Positions 944 to 12,030 are shown, counted from the first letter of the stretch. The stretch is 12,482 nt of DNA from Acidobacteriota bacterium (GCA_049967655.1 JBMFSH010000062.1:1-12482), one strand, 5' to 3'. The notes: a model not told the origin generated them from the sequence alone. Numbers and translations: made by a program.

Positions 944-989
944 CAAGTCCTCCCACGCGGCTCCGGCCATCCGGAGCCCGCAACATCCC

Positions 990-1036
990 TAGGAGTTATC
1001 AGCCATTCCGGCGCTTGACGGCGAACTCCATCGCCC
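990..1036 (-). promoter_or_regulatory. Fluoride riboswitch (crcB RNA motif) upstream of the MFS gene
   Basis: Minus strand reads GGCGATGGAGTTCGCC-GTC-AAGC-GCCGGAATGGC-TGATAACTCCTA. P1 is GGCGA/UCGCC, the pseudoknot is GGAGUU/AACUCC, and there is a small hairpin GCCG-GAA-UGGC. This matches the fluoride aptamer consensus GGCGAUGGAGUUCGCC...AAxCGCC...GCURAUGACUCCUA. Confidence 0.92.
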
Positions 1037-1041
1037 ACCCG

Positions 1042-1070
1042 ATCGTACCCAAAAAGTCGAACCCGGTCAA
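1042..1070 (-). promoter_or_regulatory. sigma70-type promoter for the riboswitch-MFS transcript
   Basis: TTGACC (1070-1065), 17-nt spacer, TACGAT (1047-1042). The predicted +1 falls at the first Gs of the aptamer. Confidence 0.8.
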
Positions 1071-3691: not shown

Positions 3692-4117
3692 TCAGGGCAC
3701 CGCCAAGAAAGCGCACGGCGCTCTCAGCATCAGCATCGTGGCGGTGGAGCCCGCCTGATCTGGGAAGACATTGGAGTGTCCCGTCCGGCCTATCACGAGC
3801 AAGTCGAATCGGCCACGCTTCACGAGGCCGAGAATGGTGCGCACCTCGTGCCCATCCGCCGAGGTAACGATGACGTCCACGCCCGCGGCCATACCCCGCT
3901 GGCGGGCCTCCATGAGCAGGGAGCCGCTGAGCGCCATCTCGGCCGCGGAGGTCTCCGCCTCACTTTCCCCATCCCCCTCCGCACGCCTCGGTGAGGTCTC
4001 CTCCACCGTCACCGCGTGCAGCTCAGCCTCCAACGCCCGCGCCAATTCCAGGGCCACTGCGAAGGCGCGCCATGACGACTCGGAGCCATCCAACCCGACC
4101 AGAATCTTGCGGTACAT
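3692..4117 (-). CDS. Universal stress protein (UspA family)
   Basis: 141 aa with MYRKILVGLDGSESS at the N-terminus and DLLVIGRTGHS...GST...APC at the C-terminus. Strong SD AAGGAGGT. Confidence 0.92.
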   Translation of the reverse strand: MYRKILVGLDGSESSWRAFAVALELARALEAELHAVTVEETSPRRAEGDGESEAETSAAEMALSGSLLMEARQRGMAAGVDVIVTSADGHEVRTILGLVKRGRFDLLVIGRTGHSNVFPDQAGSTATMLMLRAPCAFLAVP

Positions 4118-4167: not shown

Positions 4168-6324
4168 TCATGGGCGAACCCAGTTAACCAGGAGCACCAC
4201 CAGCAGCGTGACCAGGACCGTCGCCGTGTAGAGGTTGACCCGGCCGGAGTGGTGGGGCCTCGCGATCAGTCCTGCGGCGCCGCGCACCAGGCGCGTGAGG
4301 GGGAGGAGAAAGAGCCTGTCCATGATGAAGGGCTCCCGCTGACTTCGCGTGAGGGCGGTGCGATAGTGCCCCTGCACGCTCTCGCGCGTGTCCTCCTGCG
4401 TGGTGGGGCGGAAGATCGCCTGGAACACCACGCGGACGGGATTGGAGAAGCCCGTCGCGCTGTAGGTCATGTCGGGAAAGAGGTGGCGCACGCCGCCGTC
4501 CCAGACCAGTCCCCGGCGCACGGTCCGCCCCCGCGTGGCCCAGCGAACGACGAGGGCGAGACCCGCCAAAAGCAGGACGAGCACCACGGCCGTGTAGGCC
4601 GTGGACATGGCGAAGACCACCGGGTTCTTCTCCCCGCCGGGATGGAGCACCACGAGGCCACGCCCCGGCAAGAGGCCGCGGCCCACCTGGGCCCCGATGG
4701 CGTGGAAGCCCTTCACGAAGCCGACTCCGTAGCGCGCGTCACCGGAGGGCCCCACGACGAAGAAGGGCGGAACCAGCTCCTCGGTGATGGACCCGTGGGC
4801 CAGGGGCGCCACGATCGTGTCCAGGGCCGGGATCACGTAGGTCGGCGCCAGGCCCAGGGCCAGGCAGAGAGCGGCCAGCAGCCCCATGGGCCAGAGCATG
4901 CTCCGGGGCAGTTCCTTCGCCTGCTCCGCCGGCCTGGAGCGGGCCATTCCCAGGAAGCTCATGCCGAAGGCCTTCACGAAGCAGGTCACGGCGAGGGCGG
5001 CCGTGAGAGCCAGGGCGGCCGCGCAGAGGGCGAAAACGACCTTGACGCCCGTGGCGCCGAACTGGGCGCTCTGCAGGAGCGTCTGGAGGGTGAGCCACTC
5101 GCTGACGAAGCCGTTGAAGGGCGGCAGCGCGGCGATGGAGAGCGCCCCCGCCAGGAAGAAGAGCCCCGTGTAGGGCATGGCGCGAAGCAGGCCCCCCATC
5201 CGGTTCATGTCCCGCGTCCCCGTCCGCAGGTCCACTCCTCCCGCCCCCAGGAAGAGGAGCGACTTGTAGAGCGAGTGGTTCATCATGTGGTAGAAGCCAA
5301 CGACAAAGCCCATGGCCGCCAGGACGGGCAGGTGAGAGGCGAGAAAGACCATGCCCGCTCCGAGGCCCACGGTCACGAGGCCCATGTTCTCGATGGAACT
5401 GTGGGCCAGCATGCGCTTCATGTCCGGGTCGATGGTGGCGTAGAGGATGCCGATGAGGGCGGTGAGGCTCCCCACGATGAGGACCACGAGCCCCTCCCCC
5501 ACGTGCCGCACGGGCAGGAGGTCCAGGTTGACCCGCACGATGCCGTAGATGCCGAGGTTCAGGATGCACCCGGACAGGAGCGCCGAGACGGGCGCAGGGG
5601 CCACGGGATGGGCCTTGGGCAGCCAGGAGCTTCCTGGAATGAGGCCCGCCTTCACGCTGAAGCCGAAAAAGGTGAGGAGAAAAACCGCCCAGGCGGCCCC
5701 CGGCCCGAGGCCCGGGCCGACCGTGCGCAGGGCGGTGAAATCCAGCCCCGAGGCGCCGAGACCTCCGATGAAGAGCACCCCCAGCGTGGCCGCCAGCACC
5801 CCCGCCTCGGTCATGGCGAGGAGCAGGTAGCCCGCGCGCACGTTCTCCTGCTTGCGGTTTTCGAAGCCCACCAGGAGCATGCAGAAGACCGCCATGAGGC
5901 GCCAGTCGAGCAGGAAGGTCACCAGGTCCGATCCCGCCAGGGTCAGGGCCGTGGCCAGCAGGAGCAGATGGTAGAGCACGCCATAGAGCCTGAGGCTGTA
6001 GCGGCCCTCGTAGCGCGCCAGATAGCCGGCCGAGTATATCGAAGCCGGGAGAAAGACCACGGCGGTCACGAGGAGGAAGAGCGCCGAGAGGCGGTCCATT
6101 CCGAAACCGAGCGTGCCCAGGACCGGCAGGCGCAGGAGGGGGAAGGCGAAGCCCGCGCCGCTCCCCAGCGTGGCTCCGGAGGCCGCCATCAGCGCCCCCG
6201 AGGCGAGGGAGGCGGTCCAGGCGAGCCCCGTCGGTACGCGCCGGTCGGGCAGGAGCGCGCTGAGAAGGGCGCCCGCTCCCGCCAAGAGGACGAAGAGGAG
6301 AAAGAATCCGGCGGCGGGGCTCAC
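4168..6324 (-). CDS. hyfB: HyfB/HycC-like antiporter-type membrane subunit (NuoL/M/N-MrpA/D family) of an Ehr complex
   Basis: True start is most likely GTG 6324, which overlaps the small-subunit stop (GTGA) and has SD GGGGAGG; 718 aa. Motifs: GFSVKAGLIP..WLPKAHPVAPAPVSALLSG, KRMLAHSSIENMG, NHSLYKSLLFLGAG, LPPFNGFVSEW, CFVKAFG, WDGG...MTYSATGFSNP. Confidence 0.9.
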   Translation of the reverse strand: MSPAAGFFLLFVLLAGAGALLSALLPDRRVPTGLAWTASLASGALMAASGATLGSGAGFAFPLLRLPVLGTLGFGMDRLSALFLLVTAVVFLPASIYSAGYLARYEGRYSLRLYGVLYHLLLLATALTLAGSDLVTFLLDWRLMAVFCMLLVGFENRKQENVRAGYLLLAMTEAGVLAATLGVLFIGGLGASGLDFTALRTVGPGLGPGAAWAVFLLTFFGFSVKAGLIPGSSWLPKAHPVAPAPVSALLSGCILNLGIYGIVRVNLDLLPVRHVGEGLVVLIVGSLTALIGILYATIDPDMKRMLAHSSIENMGLVTVGLGAGMVFLASHLPVLAAMGFVVGFYHMMNHSLYKSLLFLGAGGVDLRTGTRDMNRMGGLLRAMPYTGLFFLAGALSIAALPPFNGFVSEWLTLQTLLQSAQFGATGVKVVFALCAAALALTAALAVTCFVKAFGMSFLGMARSRPAEQAKELPRSMLWPMGLLAALCLALGLAPTYVIPALDTIVAPLAHGSITEELVPPFFVVGPSGDARYGVGFVKGFHAIGAQVGRGLLPGRGLVVLHPGGEKNPVVFAMSTAYTAVVLVLLLAGLALVVRWATRGRTVRRGLVWDGGVRHLFPDMTYSATGFSNPVRVVFQAIFRPTTQEDTRESVQGHYRTALTRSQREPFIMDRLFLLPLTRLVRGAAGLIARPHHSGRVNLYTATVLVTLLVVLLVNWVRP

Positions 6325-7079
6325 GGCGCGGCCTCCCCCAGCGTCTCCCGGGCGCCATCGGACGTCTTCGCCCGGCCCGAGAGGAGCAGCAAGCCATGCA
6401 GGATGGCTAGAGGCGGCGGCGGGCAGCCGGGCACCTCCACGTCCACGGGCAACACGCTGCCCACGCCGCCCGCGCTGGCGAAGCTCGGCCCGAACAGGCA
6501 GCCGGTCAGGGCGCAGGTACCCACCGCCATCACGCGGCGCGGGGTGGGCATGGCCTCGTAGGCCTTGAGCAGCGGCATGCGCATGGCCTGCGTCACGGGG
6601 CCCGCCACGAGGAGCACGTCGGCGTGGCGCGGCGTTGGAGTGAGGAAGAGCCCCAGCCGGTGCATGTTGTAATAGGGTTTGTTGAGCTGCTTGATTTCGC
6701 TCAGGCAGGCATCGCAGGCGCCGGCGTCCACGACGCGGATGTGGAGCGAGTGGTCGAAGCCGCGGCCGAAGAGGGGGGCGTCGCCCGGCCCCGTCTGCCG
6801 CGCCCACTCGTACCCGCCCTCCCAGGGCACCGGATTGGGACCCGATGCGCATCGGAGGCAATGGATGCAGCGGCGCGGGTCGGCCGTGAGGCGTGTCCCG
6901 CTCGTTTCGAGCGCCCCGGCGGGGCAGGAAAGGGCCGCCCCCTCGGCGTCGGACGGGGAGGGCCAGCGGCTCTCGGCCGCCGGGAGACCCGGCGTCACGC
7001 CCGCAGCCTCTTCGGGACGCCGGGGATAGCGCGTGCTCTTCACCCCCGTCCTCAGCCCCTGGATGATCCATTTGCTCAT
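6321..7079 (-). CDS. hyfI: NuoB/HycG/HyfI-like Fe-S small subunit with N-terminal ferredoxin-like (HycF/HyfH-like) segment
   Basis: C-terminal domain has GACDAC, DVLLVAGPVT, VGTCA and PGCPP (four cluster cysteines). N-terminal segment has TRYP, CPAGAL and CIHCLRC. Confidence 0.88.
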   Translation of the reverse strand: MSKWIIQGLRTGVKSTRYPRRPEEAAGVTPGLPAAESRWPSPSDAEGAALSCPAGALETSGTRLTADPRRCIHCLRCASGPNPVPWEGGYEWARQTGPGDAPLFGRGFDHSLHIRVVDAGACDACLSEIKQLNKPYYNMHRLGLFLTPTPRHADVLLVAGPVTQAMRMPLLKAYEAMPTPRRVMAVGTCALTGCLFGPSFASAGGVGSVLPVDVEVPGCPPPPLAILHGLLLLSGRAKTSDGARETLGEAAP

Positions 7080-7088
7080 GGTGGGCTC

Positions 7089-8687
7089 CTAGCGGTCCCC
7101 TTCGGCCGTGGAGAGGCCGAAGGTGGCCATGATGATCGGGAAATCCTGGAAGGCGAAGCGCTCCGCCGCCAGGTGGAAGCCGTGCCAGTTGGTGAAGGAG
7201 GGGGTGGTCAGGCGGAAGCGCGCCACGCGGCCCCCCTCGTCCAGCCGAACCCAGTGGAAGGCCGCGCCGCGAGGCGCCTCAGCCCAGCCGAGCGCTTCGC
7301 CGGAGCGCAGGGGCACCTCCACGCGCACGGGACCGCCGGGCAGCCGTTCGGCCCCCTCCCGGATCAGGCGCGCCGAGGCGAGGGCCTCGGCGATGAGCAC
7401 CCTCAGGCGTGCGTAGCCGTCCCCCTCCTCCTCCACCGCGATCTCGGGTTTCAGAAGGGAGCCGTAGGGGCCGTAGGGCAAGTCCATCCGCGAATCCTCG
7501 GCCACGCCGGAAGCCCGGGCGATGGGCCCCACCAGGCCGAAGTGCCGGGCCTGCCGTTCGCTCACCAGCCCCACCTGCTCCAGACGGTCGAGGAAGCTTC
7601 CGGAGAAGCGGAGCCTCCGGGAGAGCCCGCCGAGCCCCCCGGCGAGGCGCTCCACGCCGCCCGCCAGCACTTGCACCTCCTCGTTCGTCCAGTCCCGGGC
7701 CATGCCGCCCGGCACCACCTGGCCATAGAGGTAGCGGTGGCCCGCCCATGCTCCCGCCAGACGCAGGGCCTCCTCCTCCAGGATGTCCGCCTGGCTTGAG
7801 GCCACCGTCATGCCCGTGGAGTGGATGATGTCGGAGAGGGCGGCCAAGTGGTGGCGGAAGCGTTCGAACTCCGCGAGGAGAGCCCTCAAGAGCTGCGCCC
7901 TCGGAGGGATGTCCGCTCCGGCGATGCGCTCCACGGCCTGACAGAAGGCCCACGCGTGGGCGATGGCCGAGGTGCCGGTGAAGCGTTCGGCCATGAGCAG
8001 GACCTTCGCGGGCTCCTCCCCCTCGGCCAGCTTCTCGACGCCGCGGTACTTGTAGAAGAGGCGCGGGATGGTTCGCGCCACGTCCTCTCCCACCGTCTCC
8101 AGGAGGAAGTGCGAGGCCTGGGCCGTGTCCGAGAAGATGGGCCCCACGGGCATGGCGAAGGCGCCAGGGGCCTGAACGATGCGCACGGGCCGCCACTGCG
8201 GGTCCACCTCCCGGGCGGTGTAGGGCACGCGGGCGTTGAAGCTCCATCGCATGGGGTTGACGCCCTCGGGCCACTCCTCGTGCAGGATGAACTCGCCCAG
8301 GCGGGGGTGGCCCGTGAAGGTCAGGCCGAAAAGATCCTCCGTCTCCCGTTCGTGCCAGTCCGCGCCGTGCACCGCATCGCTGATGCTGGGAAGGCTCGTG
8401 TGCTGAAGCGGCATTTCGACCAACACGTGCACCCACAGGGGCTCCCGTCCCCAGAATAGGGTGCGCAGCCGCCAGCCCTCTTCCCGCTCCTCCGTCACCA
8501 GCGTGGCGAAGCGATAGTGCCTTTCGCCCGCGAGCCAGGCGCAGAGATCGGGGAGGAGGGCGGGATCGCACGCCAGGAGCAAACCGTCGGGAGGAAGCGG
8601 GGAGACCCGCAGGGCATCGCCCCACCGGGCCGCCGCTTCGGCATCGAGGGAGAGGGCGGAGGGAATTTTCTGGGCGGGCGTCATCAT
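7089..8687 (-). CDS. hyfG: HycE/HyfG-like large subunit (fused NuoC/NuoD-like) lacking NiFe ligands, i.e. Ehr large subunit
   Basis: 532 aa. NuoC-like part: WHERETEDLFGLTFTGHP. NuoD-like part: VGPI, RLFYKYRGVEKLAEG, EFERFRHH, GPIARASG, GDGYARL, EAPRG, PSFTNW. The L1 site reads ERFTGTS and the C-terminus reads DFPIIMATFGLSTAEGDR, so neither CxxC is present. Confidence 0.9.
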   Translation of the reverse strand: MMTPAQKIPSALSLDAEAAARWGDALRVSPLPPDGLLLACDPALLPDLCAWLAGERHYRFATLVTEEREEGWRLRTLFWGREPLWVHVLVEMPLQHTSLPSISDAVHGADWHERETEDLFGLTFTGHPRLGEFILHEEWPEGVNPMRWSFNARVPYTAREVDPQWRPVRIVQAPGAFAMPVGPIFSDTAQASHFLLETVGEDVARTIPRLFYKYRGVEKLAEGEEPAKVLLMAERFTGTSAIAHAWAFCQAVERIAGADIPPRAQLLRALLAEFERFRHHLAALSDIIHSTGMTVASSQADILEEEALRLAGAWAGHRYLYGQVVPGGMARDWTNEEVQVLAGGVERLAGGLGGLSRRLRFSGSFLDRLEQVGLVSERQARHFGLVGPIARASGVAEDSRMDLPYGPYGSLLKPEIAVEEEGDGYARLRVLIAEALASARLIREGAERLPGGPVRVEVPLRSGEALGWAEAPRGAAFHWVRLDEGGRVARFRLTTPSFTNWHGFHLAAERFAFQDFPIIMATFGLSTAEGDR

Positions 8688-8691
8688 GGCA

Positions 8692-10137
8692 TCACCTCGC
8701 CAGCGCCGTCGCGGCCAGGCGCAGAAGGTGTTCGACGGAGGCGGGCAGACTCACGCCCAGCAGCACCACCGGCACGAAGGCCACGACAAGCGCCAGGGCG
8801 TAACTCCTGGGAAAGGCCGGCACGGGCCCCGTGGCGGTGGCCTTGCCGAACACCATGCGGGTCACGTGGTAGAGGACCGCGCAGAAGGCGCCCACCATGC
8901 AGAGCGTGAGCAGGGCCACGGGGAGAAAGCGGCGGTCCACGGCGCCGCCCTGGAGGATGGACAGCTCGCTCAGGAAGAGGGCGAAGGGAGGGGCGCCGGT
9001 CACCGCCAAGGCTCCCGCGAGGAGCGCCGCTCCCGCCAGGGGCGAGCGGCGGCCGAGCCCCTGCACCGCGGCGATCTCCGTCGTGCCGGCGAAGAGCAGG
9101 GCCGCGCCGGCGGCGAAGAAGCCGAAGGGCTTGGCGAGCGCGTGGTTCATGAGCTGGTAGACAGAGCCATATCCGGCCGCGCCGCCCAGCCCGGCCGCCG
9201 TGAGGATGATCCCCGCGTTCTCGATCGTGGAGTAGGCGAAGAGGCGTTTGAGGTCCTTCACCTGGACGAGCAGGAGCGCCGCGCCCACCGCGGAGAGCAG
9301 GCCGAAGGCGAGGAGCCACCGGCCGGCCCCGTCGCCCGCCTTGCCTGGAAAGAGCGGCAGAAGGCGCACGATCACGTAGGGGAGCGTCGTGGTCTCCACC
9401 ACCGACAGGAGGGCGCAGATGGGCACGGGGGCTTGGCTGTAAACGTCCGGCAGCCAGGAGTGAAAGGGGACGAGGGCGGCCTTGGTGCCGTAGCCCACGA
9501 GCATGAAGAGAAAGGCCGTCTTCACGAGCAACGGGGGCATGGCGCCCTCCGCCGCGGCGAGGCCGGACCAGGTGAAGTCCTCCGCGCCCCCCAGGCGCAT
9601 GGCCCAGTAGAGCACCAGCACGCCGAAGAGAGCCAGCGCCGCCCCCATGGAAGTGAGGATGGCGTATTTCCAAGCCGCCTCCAGGGCCGCCGTGCTCCGG
9701 TCGAAGCTGACGAGGAAGATGGAGAGCAGGGTCGTGAGCGCCACGGCGATCCACACCAGCGCGACGTTGGAGAGCAGCGGCACCGCCAACACGGGGGCCA
9801 GGAAGAGATTGAAACGGACGAAGTAGCGCCTGACCCGGCCCGCCTCCATGGGCTGAGTGGCCCTCCGCGTAAAACCGATGGAGAAGAGGGCCGCGGTGAA
9901 CCCCGCGAAGGCGCACAAGACCAGCACCAGCGCGCCGAATGCGTCGCACGAGACCCAGCCCGGCAGGGCCGCGACCGTGGCCCCCGTGGCGCAGCGGCCC
10001 GCCACGGCGAGGGCCAAGAGGAGTTGCAGAGCCGTCGCGAGCGCCGTTACGCCGCCCGGGATGGTGCGATGGGGGGAGGGCCAGAGCGCCAGGGCCGCGG
10101 CGATGAGCGGAATAATCAGAATGAACCAGAGCACCAT
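8692..10137 (-). CDS. hyfF: HyfF-like antiporter-type membrane subunit
   Basis: 481 aa polytopic membrane protein with ALEAAWKY, GYGTKAALVPFHSWLPD, DLKRLFAYSTIEN, NHALAK and GAPPFALFLSE. SD GAGGAG is present. Confidence 0.9.
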   Translation of the reverse strand: MVLWFILIIPLIAAALALWPSPHRTIPGGVTALATALQLLLALAVAGRCATGATVAALPGWVSCDAFGALVLVLCAFAGFTAALFSIGFTRRATQPMEAGRVRRYFVRFNLFLAPVLAVPLLSNVALVWIAVALTTLLSIFLVSFDRSTAALEAAWKYAILTSMGAALALFGVLVLYWAMRLGGAEDFTWSGLAAAEGAMPPLLVKTAFLFMLVGYGTKAALVPFHSWLPDVYSQAPVPICALLSVVETTTLPYVIVRLLPLFPGKAGDGAGRWLLAFGLLSAVGAALLLVQVKDLKRLFAYSTIENAGIILTAAGLGGAAGYGSVYQLMNHALAKPFGFFAAGAALLFAGTTEIAAVQGLGRRSPLAGAALLAGALAVTGAPPFALFLSELSILQGGAVDRRFLPVALLTLCMVGAFCAVLYHVTRMVFGKATATGPVPAFPRSYALALVVAFVPVVLLGVSLPASVEHLLRLAATALAR

Positions 10138-10141
10138 CGCC

Positions 10142-10825
10142 TCACTCCTCTCTGAGATCGGTCAGGTCGGCCACGGAGGTCGAGCCGGCCCGCTCGTGGA
10201 GCTTCCTCGTCAGAAGCCCCATGACCAGGGCGATGACGAGCACGTCAAAGGCCGCGGCCAGTTCGGCGAAGAGCGGCAGGTCGGGGGCGATGGCCACCCC
10301 CGCGAAAAAGGCACCGTTCTCCATGGAAAGAAGCCCGAGCACCTGTGGCAGGGCCTCCCGGCGGACGGTCACGGTGAAGGCCCCGATGAGCAGGGCTGCC
10401 AGTCCGATCGGCAGGTTGACCCCCACCTGCCCCAAGGGCGCGGCCGCCCGCAGCGGCGCGGCCAGGAAATAGGCGAGGATGGCGAGTCCCAGCGCGATGA
10501 GCAGGGAGGTCGGGATGTTCAGCACCTGCGAGATTTCTCGGCGGGCCACCACGGCCTCGCTGGCCGTCCGCCTGAGCAGCCAGGGAATGAGGAGTGCCTT
10601 GGCAACGATCGTGATGGCCGCCACGGCATAGAGGTGGTCCGAGGCCGCCTCGTGGCCCAGCAGCGCGGCCGAGGCGGCGAGCAGCACGGACTGCCCCGCG
10701 AAGAGGGCCACGCAGTCCAGGACCTGCCGCGTGGCCACCAGGCCGAAGGTGGCCAGGAGGAACAGGCCGGCGGCCAGCAGGTTGAGCTCGTTGACCAGGG
10801 TCACGCTGATGTGGGGATCGGGCAC
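10142..10825 (-). CDS. hyfE: HyfE-like membrane subunit (NuoK-like C-terminus)
   Basis: 227 aa with KALLIPWLL and QVLGLLSMENG...ELAAAFDV...LTDLRE. GTG start with SD GGAGG. Confidence 0.88.
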   Translation of the reverse strand: MPDPHISVTLVNELNLLAAGLFLLATFGLVATRQVLDCVALFAGQSVLLAASAALLGHEAASDHLYAVAAITIVAKALLIPWLLRRTASEAVVARREISQVLNIPTSLLIALGLAILAYFLAAPLRAAAPLGQVGVNLPIGLAALLIGAFTVTVRREALPQVLGLLSMENGAFFAGVAIAPDLPLFAELAAAFDVLVIALVMGLLTRKLHERAGSTSVADLTDLREE

Positions 10826-10835
10826 GACCAGCCTC

Positions 10836-11786
10836 CTACAGTTCCATGAGCCGAATCAGCAGGGCCGCCACGCAGACCACGAAGGCCGCCCCGAGAAATT
10901 CGGTGATCCGAAAGAGCCGCAGCTTGGCGAAGGAGGACTCAACCCCCACGAGAGCCAGGATGCACAGCACCATCTTGAGGAGCACCAGGGGGATGGCGGC
11001 GAGCACGGCCGTAACGCTCTGGCTGGAGGCCAGGCCCCAGGGTGCCACGAGGACGTTAAGGAAGATGCAGAGCAGGACGAAGAACTTCATGGCCCCGCCC
11101 CACTTCATGAGGGCCGCCCCGCGCCCCGAGTACTCCAGCCCCTTGGACTCGTCGATCATGGCCAGCTCGAAATGGCCCGACGGGTTGTCCACCGGCAGCC
11201 GTCCAGTCTCCGCCAGGATCAGCATGAAGAAGGCGATCAGGAGCAGGACGTGGGCAGGGTCGAAGAAGTTGGCCGGAGGATGGACCCAGCGCTGCTGGAC
11301 GATGTAGGGGATCGTGGAGCCCGCCACGACGGAGACCGTGAAAAAAACGATCATGAACACCGGCTCGGCCAGGAAGCCCACCATCCGCGTCCGGCTCGCC
11401 CCCATGGGGCCGTACGGGTTGGCCGTATCGATCGCCGCGAGGGTGGCGAAGAAGCCGCCGAGGGCCAGGATGAAGCCGCCCCCCAGCATGTCACCCATGA
11501 AGGCGAAGAAGAGCGGGTAGTCGGTGAGCACGGGGATGAGCAGCGCCACGAAGAGCGGCGCTACGAAGACCACATAGGGCGTGACGCGGAAGATCCATGT
11601 GCTCTCGCGGGAGACCACTTCGTCCTTGTGGAAGAGCTTCCAGAGGTCGTAGTAGGGCTGAAAGACGCTTGGCCCCCGGTGGGATTGGAGGCGCTCCTTC
11701 AGCTTGGCGCTAATCCCCGCCATGAGAGGGGCGAAGAGGAGCACCACCAGCGCCTGGAGGACGTTGTAGAGAAGGTGCGCGATCAC
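10836..11786 (-). CDS. hyfC: HyfC/HycD-like membrane subunit (NuoH/ND1 family)
   Basis: Probable start is GTG 11786 after SD GAGGGGG (316 aa); the upstream in-frame extension lies in the riboswitch leader. Motifs: LQSHRGPSVFQPYYDLWKLFHK, GASR...AEP, AETGRLPVD...EL...LEYSG, ESSFAKLRLFRI. Confidence 0.9.
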   Translation of the reverse strand: MIAHLLYNVLQALVVLLFAPLMAGISAKLKERLQSHRGPSVFQPYYDLWKLFHKDEVVSRESTWIFRVTPYVVFVAPLFVALLIPVLTDYPLFFAFMGDMLGGGFILALGGFFATLAAIDTANPYGPMGASRTRMVGFLAEPVFMIVFFTVSVVAGSTIPYIVQQRWVHPPANFFDPAHVLLLIAFFMLILAETGRLPVDNPSGHFELAMIDESKGLEYSGRGAALMKWGGAMKFFVLLCIFLNVLVAPWGLASSQSVTAVLAAIPLVLLKMVLCILALVGVESSFAKLRLFRITEFLGAAFVVCVAALLIRLMEL

Positions 11787-11913
11787 GGCGCACCCCCCTC
11801 TTTCGCCAGCAGGGGAATCCCCGATGCTCTTGGTGCGGTTTTTTCGATCAGTCCGGCTGCAGGCCACATACAAAGCTCCCATCGGCGGCCCGGCGGGAGC
11901 TTTAAGGAGGCAC

Positions 11914-11951
11914 AAAAAACTCCCGACGGGGCCACTTCACCTGTCAGGAGT
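11914..11951 (-). terminator. Intrinsic terminator forming the riboswitch expression platform
   Basis: RNA ACUCCUGACAGG-UGAAGUGGC-CCCGUCGGGAGU followed by a U tract (six U at 11919-11914). The 5' arm is the aptamer's pseudoknot strand, so terminator and ligand-bound fold are mutually exclusive (ON switch). Confidence 0.85.
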
Positions 11952-11993
11952 CATTAGCCTCGGCGAGGCGTTTCGCGGGGGGACTCCATCCCC
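11945..11993 (-). promoter_or_regulatory. Fluoride riboswitch (crcB RNA motif) upstream of the Ehr operon
   Basis: Minus strand reads GGGGATGGAGTCCCC-CCGCG-AAAC-GCCTCGCCGAGGC-TAATGACTCCTG. P1 is GGGGA/UCCCC, which covaries with the other copy (GGCGA/UCGCC). The pseudoknot is GGAGU/ACUCC and the canonical GCUAAUGACUCC is present. Confidence 0.94.
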
Positions 11994-12001
11994 TCGACGG
12001 C

Positions 12002-12030
12002 ATCTTAGGATCTTTGGCCGCTCAAGTCAA
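12002..12030 (-). promoter_or_regulatory. sigma70-type promoter for the riboswitch-Ehr operon
   Basis: TTGACT (12030-12025), 17-nt spacer, TAAGAT (12007-12002), 8 nt upstream of the aptamer. Confidence 0.8.

Follow-up and report, generated by a model that had tools for sequence, protein, structure and literature searches.

The stretch of DNA analysed here, 12,482 nucleotides from an Acidobacteriota bacterium (GCA_049967655.1, JBMFSH010000062.1:1-12482; called the window below, with its contig labelled C62 and its genome G000), carries a six-gene operon for an Ehr complex in which the antiporter-like subunit HyfB has an arginine, Arg142, in place of the conserved glutamate of transmembrane helix 5 (TM5). 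We found that this operon belongs to an old clade, the Arg clade, that lost the TM5 glutamate in both of its antiporter-like subunits (to Arg in HyfB and to Ala or Thr in HyfF), with a shared origin and under purifying selection. The Arg clade is a real, conserved and undescribed variant of a known orphan complex. The gene and residues of HyfB that bear on this are as follows.

4168-6324, minus strand: hyfB-like gene for an antiporter-like subunit of 718 amino acids, GTG start, no internal stop
5905-5907, minus strand: HyfB Asp140, poorly kept (5/21 Arg proteins)
5899-5901, minus strand: HyfB Arg142 at the TM5 Glu position, codon CGC
5806-5808, minus strand: HyfB Glu173 (TM6), subfamily-wide, aligning with the TM6 Asp of NuoL-type subunits (6hum_F)
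5650-5652, minus strand: HyfB Lys225 (TM7), retained in 120/120 best homologues and 21/21 Arg proteins
5557-5559, minus strand: HyfB Asn256 at the TM8 Lys position, subfamily-wide (120/120 best homologues)

HyfB was aligned pairwise with HycC (7z0s_C), MbhH (6cfw_H), two MrpA chains and NdhF. All five alignments set Arg142 on the TM5 Glu and none of the checks put the Arg elsewhere, and Asn256, 31 residues past Lys225, is matched with the TM8 Lys in HycC, MbhH and both MrpA chains (NdhF has Ala there), so both placements made in a preliminary description of the window hold. The alignment register at 142 is fixed because the adjacent Trp141 is kept in 119/120 of the best HyfB homologues. An AlphaFold model of HyfB (pLDDT 77, pTM 0.80) sets residue 142 midway along helix 134-152 and residue 256 inside helix 244-269, and a Foldseek search with this model returned HycC (7z0s_C) as the top match, with 3rko_C at a root-mean-square deviation of 2.7. 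The protein scores 161.9 bits against PF00361 (cut-off 21.5) and lies below the cut-off of the hydrogenase-4 subunit B equivalog NF005086 (543 vs 667 bits). In the accessible text on HycC, its E135 and K239 are given as the counterparts of NuoM E144 and K265 (PMC5061711). Of the residues that characterize antiporter-like subunits, HyfB has the TM7 Lys (K225) and the TM12 residue (E409) and lacks the TM5 Glu and a Lys or His in TM8. E173, K225, K303, E312, H350, K354 and E409 are kept in 21/21 Arg proteins and H346 in 19/21. A sequencing error at Arg142 is excluded because going from Glu to CGN takes two base changes and the relatives vary in the CGN codon used (CGC, CGG, CGT and CGA).

Arg142 is no singleton, as it is carried by 21 homologue clusters at 47-95% identity whose records are named Acidobacteriota and Phycisphaerae. 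The near members of the clade are found in G006 and G008, of the host's family, and in G161, of another family in the same phylum; one near record is named Acidobacteriota and one HyfF fragment Deltaproteobacteria. Among 149 distant representatives, 140 covered the TM5 site, with 138 Glu, one Gly and one Arg. The distant Arg protein, P0253 (51% identity), led to 11 further Arg proteins, four of them named Phycisphaerae, giving a second group that is Arg in 12/12; the other 68 new matches all have Glu at the site. Searches of the phylum and of small classes with a second-group protein gave no Arg operon, before a class-wide search of 401 genomes found some: the subfamily was present in 17/401, and 17 regions from that class comprise 12 Arg operons (in 11 genomes) and 5 Glu operons. 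P0336, a distant HyfB-like protein from a cluster named Thermaerobacter, has Gly at the TM5 Glu position and Ala at that of the TM8 Lys.

HyfF, the other antiporter-like subunit, lost its TM5 Glu in parallel, which the preliminary description had missed, and its channel helices were rebuilt in the Arg clade.

8692-10137, minus strand: hyfF-like gene for an antiporter-like subunit (PF00361), remodelled in the Arg clade
9739-9741, minus strand: HyfF Ala133 at the TM5 Glu site (Ala in 10/10 near members)
9394-9396, minus strand: HyfF Glu248 (TM8), an extra carboxylate, subfamily-wide (120/120)
9217-9219, minus strand: HyfF Asn307 for His, a clade signature (9/9 near members vs 1/111 others; 10/10 second group)

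The HyfF TM5 site is Ala in 10/10 near members, Thr in 10/10 covered members of the second group, and Glu in 111/111 others and in 2/2 covered Glu-type operons of the second group's class. As in HyfB, the TM7 Lys (K219) and TM12 Glu (E391) are kept and TM8 has neither Lys nor His (Thr250, with Glu248); K219, H226, E306, H332, K336 and E391 are present in 10/10 second-group proteins. HyfF holds 19 of the 37 clade signature columns (binomial p 1e-5 by length). Signatures common to both Arg groups are H233Y, G246V/I, L253P, H307N and S337P in HyfF and G123D in the small subunit, though near Glu-type HyfF proteins also show some of them (Tyr233 16/111, Pro253 11/111, Asn307 1/111). A separate loss was seen at L037 and L038 (Pseudomonadota), where the HyfF TM5 Glu is Ser or Ala while HyfB keeps Glu.

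Two layers of change can be told apart. Glu173, Asn256 and the loss of the TM7-loop His (position 232, Ser here) are each found in 120/120 best homologues, whereas Arg142 is found in 8/120 (75-95% identity), the remaining 112 having Glu (48-61%). We fetched 152 loci from among the matches listed, 107 at ≥46% identity and 45 below, and Arg142 was absent from all of them. Asn256 occurs in 105/107 loci of the higher set, with Glu142 in 104/104 covered; the 45 lower-identity loci, the non-fluoride Ehr/Hyf loci of this comparison, have Lys256 in 43/45, His173 in 41/45 and Glu142 in 45/45, so Arg is not equally common there. Glu248 of HyfF appears among these 45 only in L067, which is a subfamily member by gene order and residues. 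Asn256 and the riboswitch described below thus mark the whole subfamily, and Arg142 alone marks something narrower. The idea that Asn256 and the missing His belong to the same change as Arg142 therefore fails, and both were dropped from the Arg event. Ser232 itself is a weak Arg signature, as it is also found in 48/112 near Glu-type proteins. Asp140, two residues before Arg142, was rejected as a substitute carboxylate since only 5/21 Arg proteins have it, in line with the preliminary view that it is no general stand-in. As a separate observation, many Glu-type loci (L032, L034, L035, L107, L110, about 35 more, and L290) have a tandem hyfB pair, each copy about 50% identical to the query and both with Glu142 and Asn256, and P0010 is a 1242-residue fusion of two hyfB copies; the Arg-type operons seen have one hyfB.

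A 48-row tree of all six subunits, with the 37 signature columns dropped, joins the Arg groups as one clade with support of 100. In HyfB-only trees, IQ-TREE joins both groups at 88 and FastTree splits them with weak support; two independent origins were considered on that split, and we prefer a single origin of Arg142. Ratios of nonsynonymous to synonymous substitution (dN/dS, Nei-Gojobori) between G000 and G006, G008 or G161 are 0.12-0.16 for hyfB and 0.18 for hyfF, and four second-group pairs, two of them near saturation, give 0.07-0.15 and 0.09-0.11; the range over all six operon genes is 0.02-0.27. None of the 12 second-group operons has an internal stop. The Arg operon is not decaying, because dN/dS is 0.07-0.18 for hyfB and hyfF, and the earlier suggestion of a substitution in an otherwise intact gene is borne out. 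Residue 140 takes seven different residues while Arg142 stays invariant across 47-95% identity. Relative rates are raised in HyfF (ratio 1.36) and HyfC (1.27), and the operon is patchy, occurring in 3/29 genomes of the host's order. In two hot-spring metagenome studies, contigs at ~93-95% identity span most of the operon, and pieces of it turn up in a mine-drainage run. Fluoride and low pH are common in such settings.

The operon runs in the order hyfC, hyfE, hyfF, large subunit, small subunit, hyfB, and its remaining genes are listed here.

10836-11786, minus strand: hyfC-like (NuoH/HycD) anchor subunit, PF00146, acidic residues retained
10142-10825, minus strand: hyfE-like (NuoK-like) subunit, 0 differences at 56 conserved columns
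7089-8687, minus strand: large subunit, a HycE-like 30+49 kDa fusion, Cys only at 40, 49 and 249
8118-8120, minus strand: large-subunit Gln190 at the Glu of the beta1-beta2 loop (HycE E193), within the Arg clade confined to this branch
6321-7079, minus strand: small subunit, PF01058, with an N-terminal four-Cys ferredoxin part and a NuoB/HycG part with four Cys

HyfB/C/E/F-like membrane genes thus stand in one operon with a large and a small subunit, and both NiFe Cys pairs of the large subunit are gone; the complex is therefore an Ehr complex and no group 4 NiFe hydrogenase or formate hydrogenlyase. Ehr complexes are described, in the accessible text, as having a large subunit without NiFe ligands and a function that is unknown (PMC6349859, PMC10432482). 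Cys 52, 71, 74, 77 and 122, 125, 189, 219 of the small subunit are predicted iron-sulfur ligands, and Asp123 is a clade signature. Residue 219, the fourth ligand of its cluster, was seen to vary in Glu-type operons (Cys 16/52, Asn 19, Asp 8) and is Cys in all Arg-type operons. HycE E193 is reported as a proton-transfer residue (PMC9474812). E190Q was considered as a third clade-wide loss and dropped because the second group keeps Glu190 (it has Gln193 for His); within the clade the change is found in G000, G006 and G161, where only 3/48 conserved Glu are lost. Elsewhere the host genome encodes a full set of Nuo subunits, and C14 carries another operon of Hyf/Ehr type, a canonical one in which the TM5 Glu and TM8 Lys are present.

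The operon is headed by a fluoride riboswitch, and a second one lies further along the window.

12002-12030, minus strand: sigma-70-like promoter site just before the riboswitch, 9/12 consensus matches (consensus match only)
11938-12002, minus strand: fluoride riboswitch RF01734 heading the operon, 44.3 bits (gathering score 34)
11913-11952, minus strand: terminator-like hairpin and U run overlapping the aptamer 3′ end, the probable expression platform of an ON switch; -24.1 kcal/mol, z -4.1, 0/200 shuffles as stable
983-1044, minus strand: second fluoride riboswitch, before a transporter gene of the major facilitator superfamily (MFS), 45.6 bits

Two promoter-like sites were seen in the window against 0.6 expected, each right before a riboswitch, and from these elements the Ehr operon is predicted to be switched on by fluoride. 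A local model built from 26 local riboswitches was matched within 1 kb before hyfC, and found a riboswitch in 51/55 evaluable Glu-type operons (33 at ≥30 bits) and in 0/45 lower-identity loci. An Rfam recheck confirmed 7/9 upstream matches, added L144 and found none in L067, for a total of 52/55 Glu-type operons. A sense-strand riboswitch precedes 3/3 evaluable near Arg operons and 7/9 evaluable second-group operons, where it is often separated from the operon by a phosphoesterase and enolase gene. Its presence is no marker of Arg, since Glu-keeping operons have it as well.

The host genome has a Fluc gene on C4. Fluc is encoded in 14/16 Arg genomes vs 16/36 genomes with the Glu type of the subfamily (Fisher p 0.006, a significance overstated because of kinship and incomplete genomes), so the Arg type does not go with the absence of a known exporter. 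In G161, a 99% complete genome that carries the Arg operon, no Fluc and no CLC of the CLC-F type were found. In the 20 Glu-type genomes where Fluc was not found, the Thr/Val mark that CLC-F carries (PMC4113899, in its accessible part) was seen in none of the CLC proteins, 3/39 CLC loci being unreadable. That 20/36 Glu-type genomes (among G401-G431, G922, G931, G955, G1057 and G1147) have neither exporter is an observation in its own right; if real, in genomes whose completeness is unreported, the Glu type or a neighbouring gene may be an unknown fluoride exporter. A role of Ehr as a Fluc substitute is not shown by the counts (Fluc 16/31 in the subfamily vs 13/19 with canonical operons, p 0.38; 16/36 vs 13/19, p 0.15).

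As to what the double loss does, we tentatively lean, at somewhat under even confidence, towards a complex whose inter-subunit Glu/Lys gates are gone, so that redox-coupled relay pumping would be cut and the membrane arm would conduct ions down their gradient during fluoride stress. By analogy, and partly from the MBS structure, the subunits would be ordered HyfC, HyfB, HyfF, HyfE; Arg142 would then face HyfF Glu391, and Ala133 would face HyfE. Since each junction loses its titratable residue and the remaining axis residues are kept, we favour an arm that is no longer coupled to relay pumping. The TM5 Glu of complex I forms a pair with the TM7 Lys, and proton hops from TM5 to TM12 link the subunits (PMC10212512, accessible text). 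A TM5 Glu would likewise pair with the TM7 Lys here and relay a protonation signal to the TM12 residue of the subunit that follows; in its absence the usual route of this signal would be closed, both between HyfB and HyfF and between HyfF and HyfE. Exchanging this Glu for Gln is reported to block pumping by the intact enzyme and to raise passive proton conduction of the isolated Nqo12 and Nqo13 modules (PMC11496545, accessible text). The non-titratable Arg142 would probably form a fixed salt bridge with HyfB Glu173 or HyfF Glu391, with Lys225 unpaired or paired with Glu173, which is a candidate partner for either residue. The arm may in that case let ions, most likely protons, run down their gradient with weak gating or none, in place of stoichiometric redox pumping; under fluoride stress it would adjust the pH gradient or membrane potential in support of the Fluc channel. 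We count for this reading the near-universal Fluc of the Arg genomes (14/16) and the host's full Nuo set and canonical Hyf/Ehr operon.

Several points weigh against this reading. The acidic residues of HyfC and HyfE and the eight small-subunit Cys are kept, suggesting that redox coupling still matters, and an open proton path is a leak, costly when hydrogen fluoride is acidifying the cell as it is. Gln is not Arg, so what was found with the isolated modules in liposomes carries over only partly. In E. coli, HycC E135A and K239A leave formate hydrogenlyase activity unchanged, and the TM5 site can therefore be dispensable (PMC5061711, accessible text). The losses in HyfB and HyfF need not be coupled, because HyfF has lost its Glu alone at L037 and L038 and the large subunit shows E190Q alone at 3 loci; as the two Glu losses share one branch, they are one event and not repeated co-evolution.

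The best-placed rival, which we judge unlikely, is that the arm is a rewired but still redox-coupled proton pump, with HyfB Glu173 and HyfF Glu248 replacing the TM5 Glu as counter-ions of the TM7 Lys and Arg142 taking the part of the modulating Arg found in NuoL-type subunits. In its favour, Glu173 lies at the TM6 Asp of NdhF in the alignment, Nqo12 is described as having a Glu/Arg-Asp/Lys double ion pair (PMC11496545), and E173 and E248 are invariant across the subfamily, with the iron-sulfur ligands and HyfC/HyfE acids kept. However, both carboxylates are equally present in Glu-type members, where the TM5 Glu is still found in 112/112 HyfB and 111/111 HyfF proteins and so is not redundant. 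For proton uptake HyfB moreover lacks both a TM8 Lys and a TM7-loop His, and HyfF has lost another two His (233 and 307).

It is rather improbable that the arm conducts fluoride or another anion, with the relay at the HyfB/HyfF interface becoming an anion path, perhaps driven or gated by the redox arm. The replacement of protonatable groups by Arg, Ala/Thr, Tyr and Asn, with added prolines, is what this proposal builds on, together with a net membrane charge shift of about +3 (two Glu lost, one Arg gained), the clustering of signature changes in HyfF, the riboswitch before Arg operons, and G161 with its Arg operon and no exporter found. Fluoride paths in Fluc are lined by Arg and Asn. On the other side, the riboswitch leads Glu-type operons as often, Fluc is commoner, not rarer, in Arg genomes than in Glu-type ones, HyfB and HyfF have no homology to Fluc (PF02537) or CLC-F (PF00654), and no anion-moving member of this fold turned up in the searches made. 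The preliminary idea of an altered specificity such as anion handling thus finds no direct evidence, with 14/16 Arg genomes encoding Fluc. The boldest version, which we consider improbable, has the antiporter modules of the Arg clade turned from a proton relay into a fluoride (anion) path at the HyfB/HyfF interface that the iron-sulfur arm drives or gates; fluoride exporters would then number three classes, and this fold would have its first anion-moving member.

Just as doubtful as anion conduction in general is a passive anchor: the arm would have stopped moving ions, an argument also made for HycC of E. coli, and once-neutral changes would be entrenched for folding or packing. The raised rates in HyfF and HyfC and scattered single losses elsewhere fit such drift, but the buried Arg is invariant where position 140 varies and the other axis residues are kept, although this retention is weakly telling since 169/197 and 74/87 near-invariant columns are conserved in any case. 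Decay of a redundant operon is very improbable: an in-frame deletion in G004, the patchy distribution and the second Ehr operon of the host point that way, and the low dN/dS in all six genes, the 12 second-group operons free of internal stops and the synonymous drift at the Arg codon argue against it. The G004 locus (L025, C151, 443-1669) lies between two riboswitches and joins hyfC, up to about residue 281, in frame to the tail of hyfB, which begins at about residue 566; hyfE, hyfF, large, small and most of hyfB have been deleted, or else it is an assembly error.

Beyond the operon, the window has the following features on the same strand.

3692-4117, minus strand: universal stress protein (usp), downstream of the operon, PF00582
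1575-2873, minus strand: second enolase copy, a typical fluoride-regulon gene, TIGR01060 (other copy on C16)

The genes after the operon are usp, lptB, the second enolase, a HAD gene, the second riboswitch and the MFS gene. The lptB-like ABC ATPase (3716-2898, between usp and enolase) has no adjoining lptA/C/F/G. Two HAD-like genes (12480-12067 and 1578-1108), 81% identical, each end just before a promoter-riboswitch unit, and this looks like a duplicated module on both sides of the operon. The MFS gene behind the second riboswitch occupies 970-2, and in G006 a Fluc gene follows on the same contig (L182); the second riboswitch of G161 leads a dynamin-like gene (L238). Recurrent neighbours of subfamily loci are enolase (27 loci), dynamin-like GTPase, Fluc (18), DUF190 (16), MutS-V-domain proteins, metallophosphoesterase, cyclopropane synthase and DUF6062.

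Among known systems, other Ehr complexes are the closest in having the same six subunits and a large subunit without NiFe CxxC pairs. The subfamily differs from them by its gene order (C-E-F-large-small-B), fluoride riboswitch, HyfB Glu173 and Asn256 and HyfF Glu248, and the Arg clade differs further by its TM5 Glu losses in HyfB and HyfF. The best sequence and fold match is HycC of E. coli formate hydrogenlyase (PDB 7Z0S), along with HyfB of Hyf; their TM11 His/His/Lys and TM12 Glu are kept here. In formate hydrogenlyase the TM12 of HycC faces the anchor and TM5 points outward (PMC9474812, accessible text). HycC keeps the TM5 Glu135, strictly conserved according to the same source, and the TM8 Lys239, and lost the TM7 Lys; HyfB here is the mirror case, with the TM7 Lys kept, TM5 Glu changed to Arg, TM8 Lys to Asn, and no NiFe site in the complex. 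Complex I NuoL/M/N, Mrp A/D and MbhH share the PF00361 fold, the TM7 Lys, the TM12 Glu and a NuoL-like TM6 carboxylate, but unlike them this HyfB has no TM5 Glu/TM7 Lys ion pair and no Lys or His in TM8. A crcB motif before ‘formate hydrogen lyase’ genes was reported in 2010 (PMC2864571) and again in 2024 (PMC11139923), riboswitch-led and beside enolase, HAD, Usp, MFS and Fluc genes as here. The complex here cannot bind NiFe, and residue-level types are not mentioned in the accessible parts of those papers. The link between riboswitch and ‘formate hydrogen lyase’ is thus already published, and no paper on the Arg clade was found; the literature searched, mostly outside subscription journals, gave no natural TM5 Arg and no residue types for fluoride-linked Ehr, and the accessible part of PMC13645896 does not treat a natural TM5 Arg.

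Both current models of complex I coupling give the TM5 Glu/TM7 Lys pair a central place, and mutating the pair in complex I kills turnover, which hampers study. Here a natural, conserved lineage spanning two phyla lacks the Glu in both subunits and stands beside Glu-keeping sister operons with the same inducer. This offers a ready comparison of Arg-type and Glu-type complexes for ion gating, and a handle on the role of the orphan fluoride-induced Ehr complexes.

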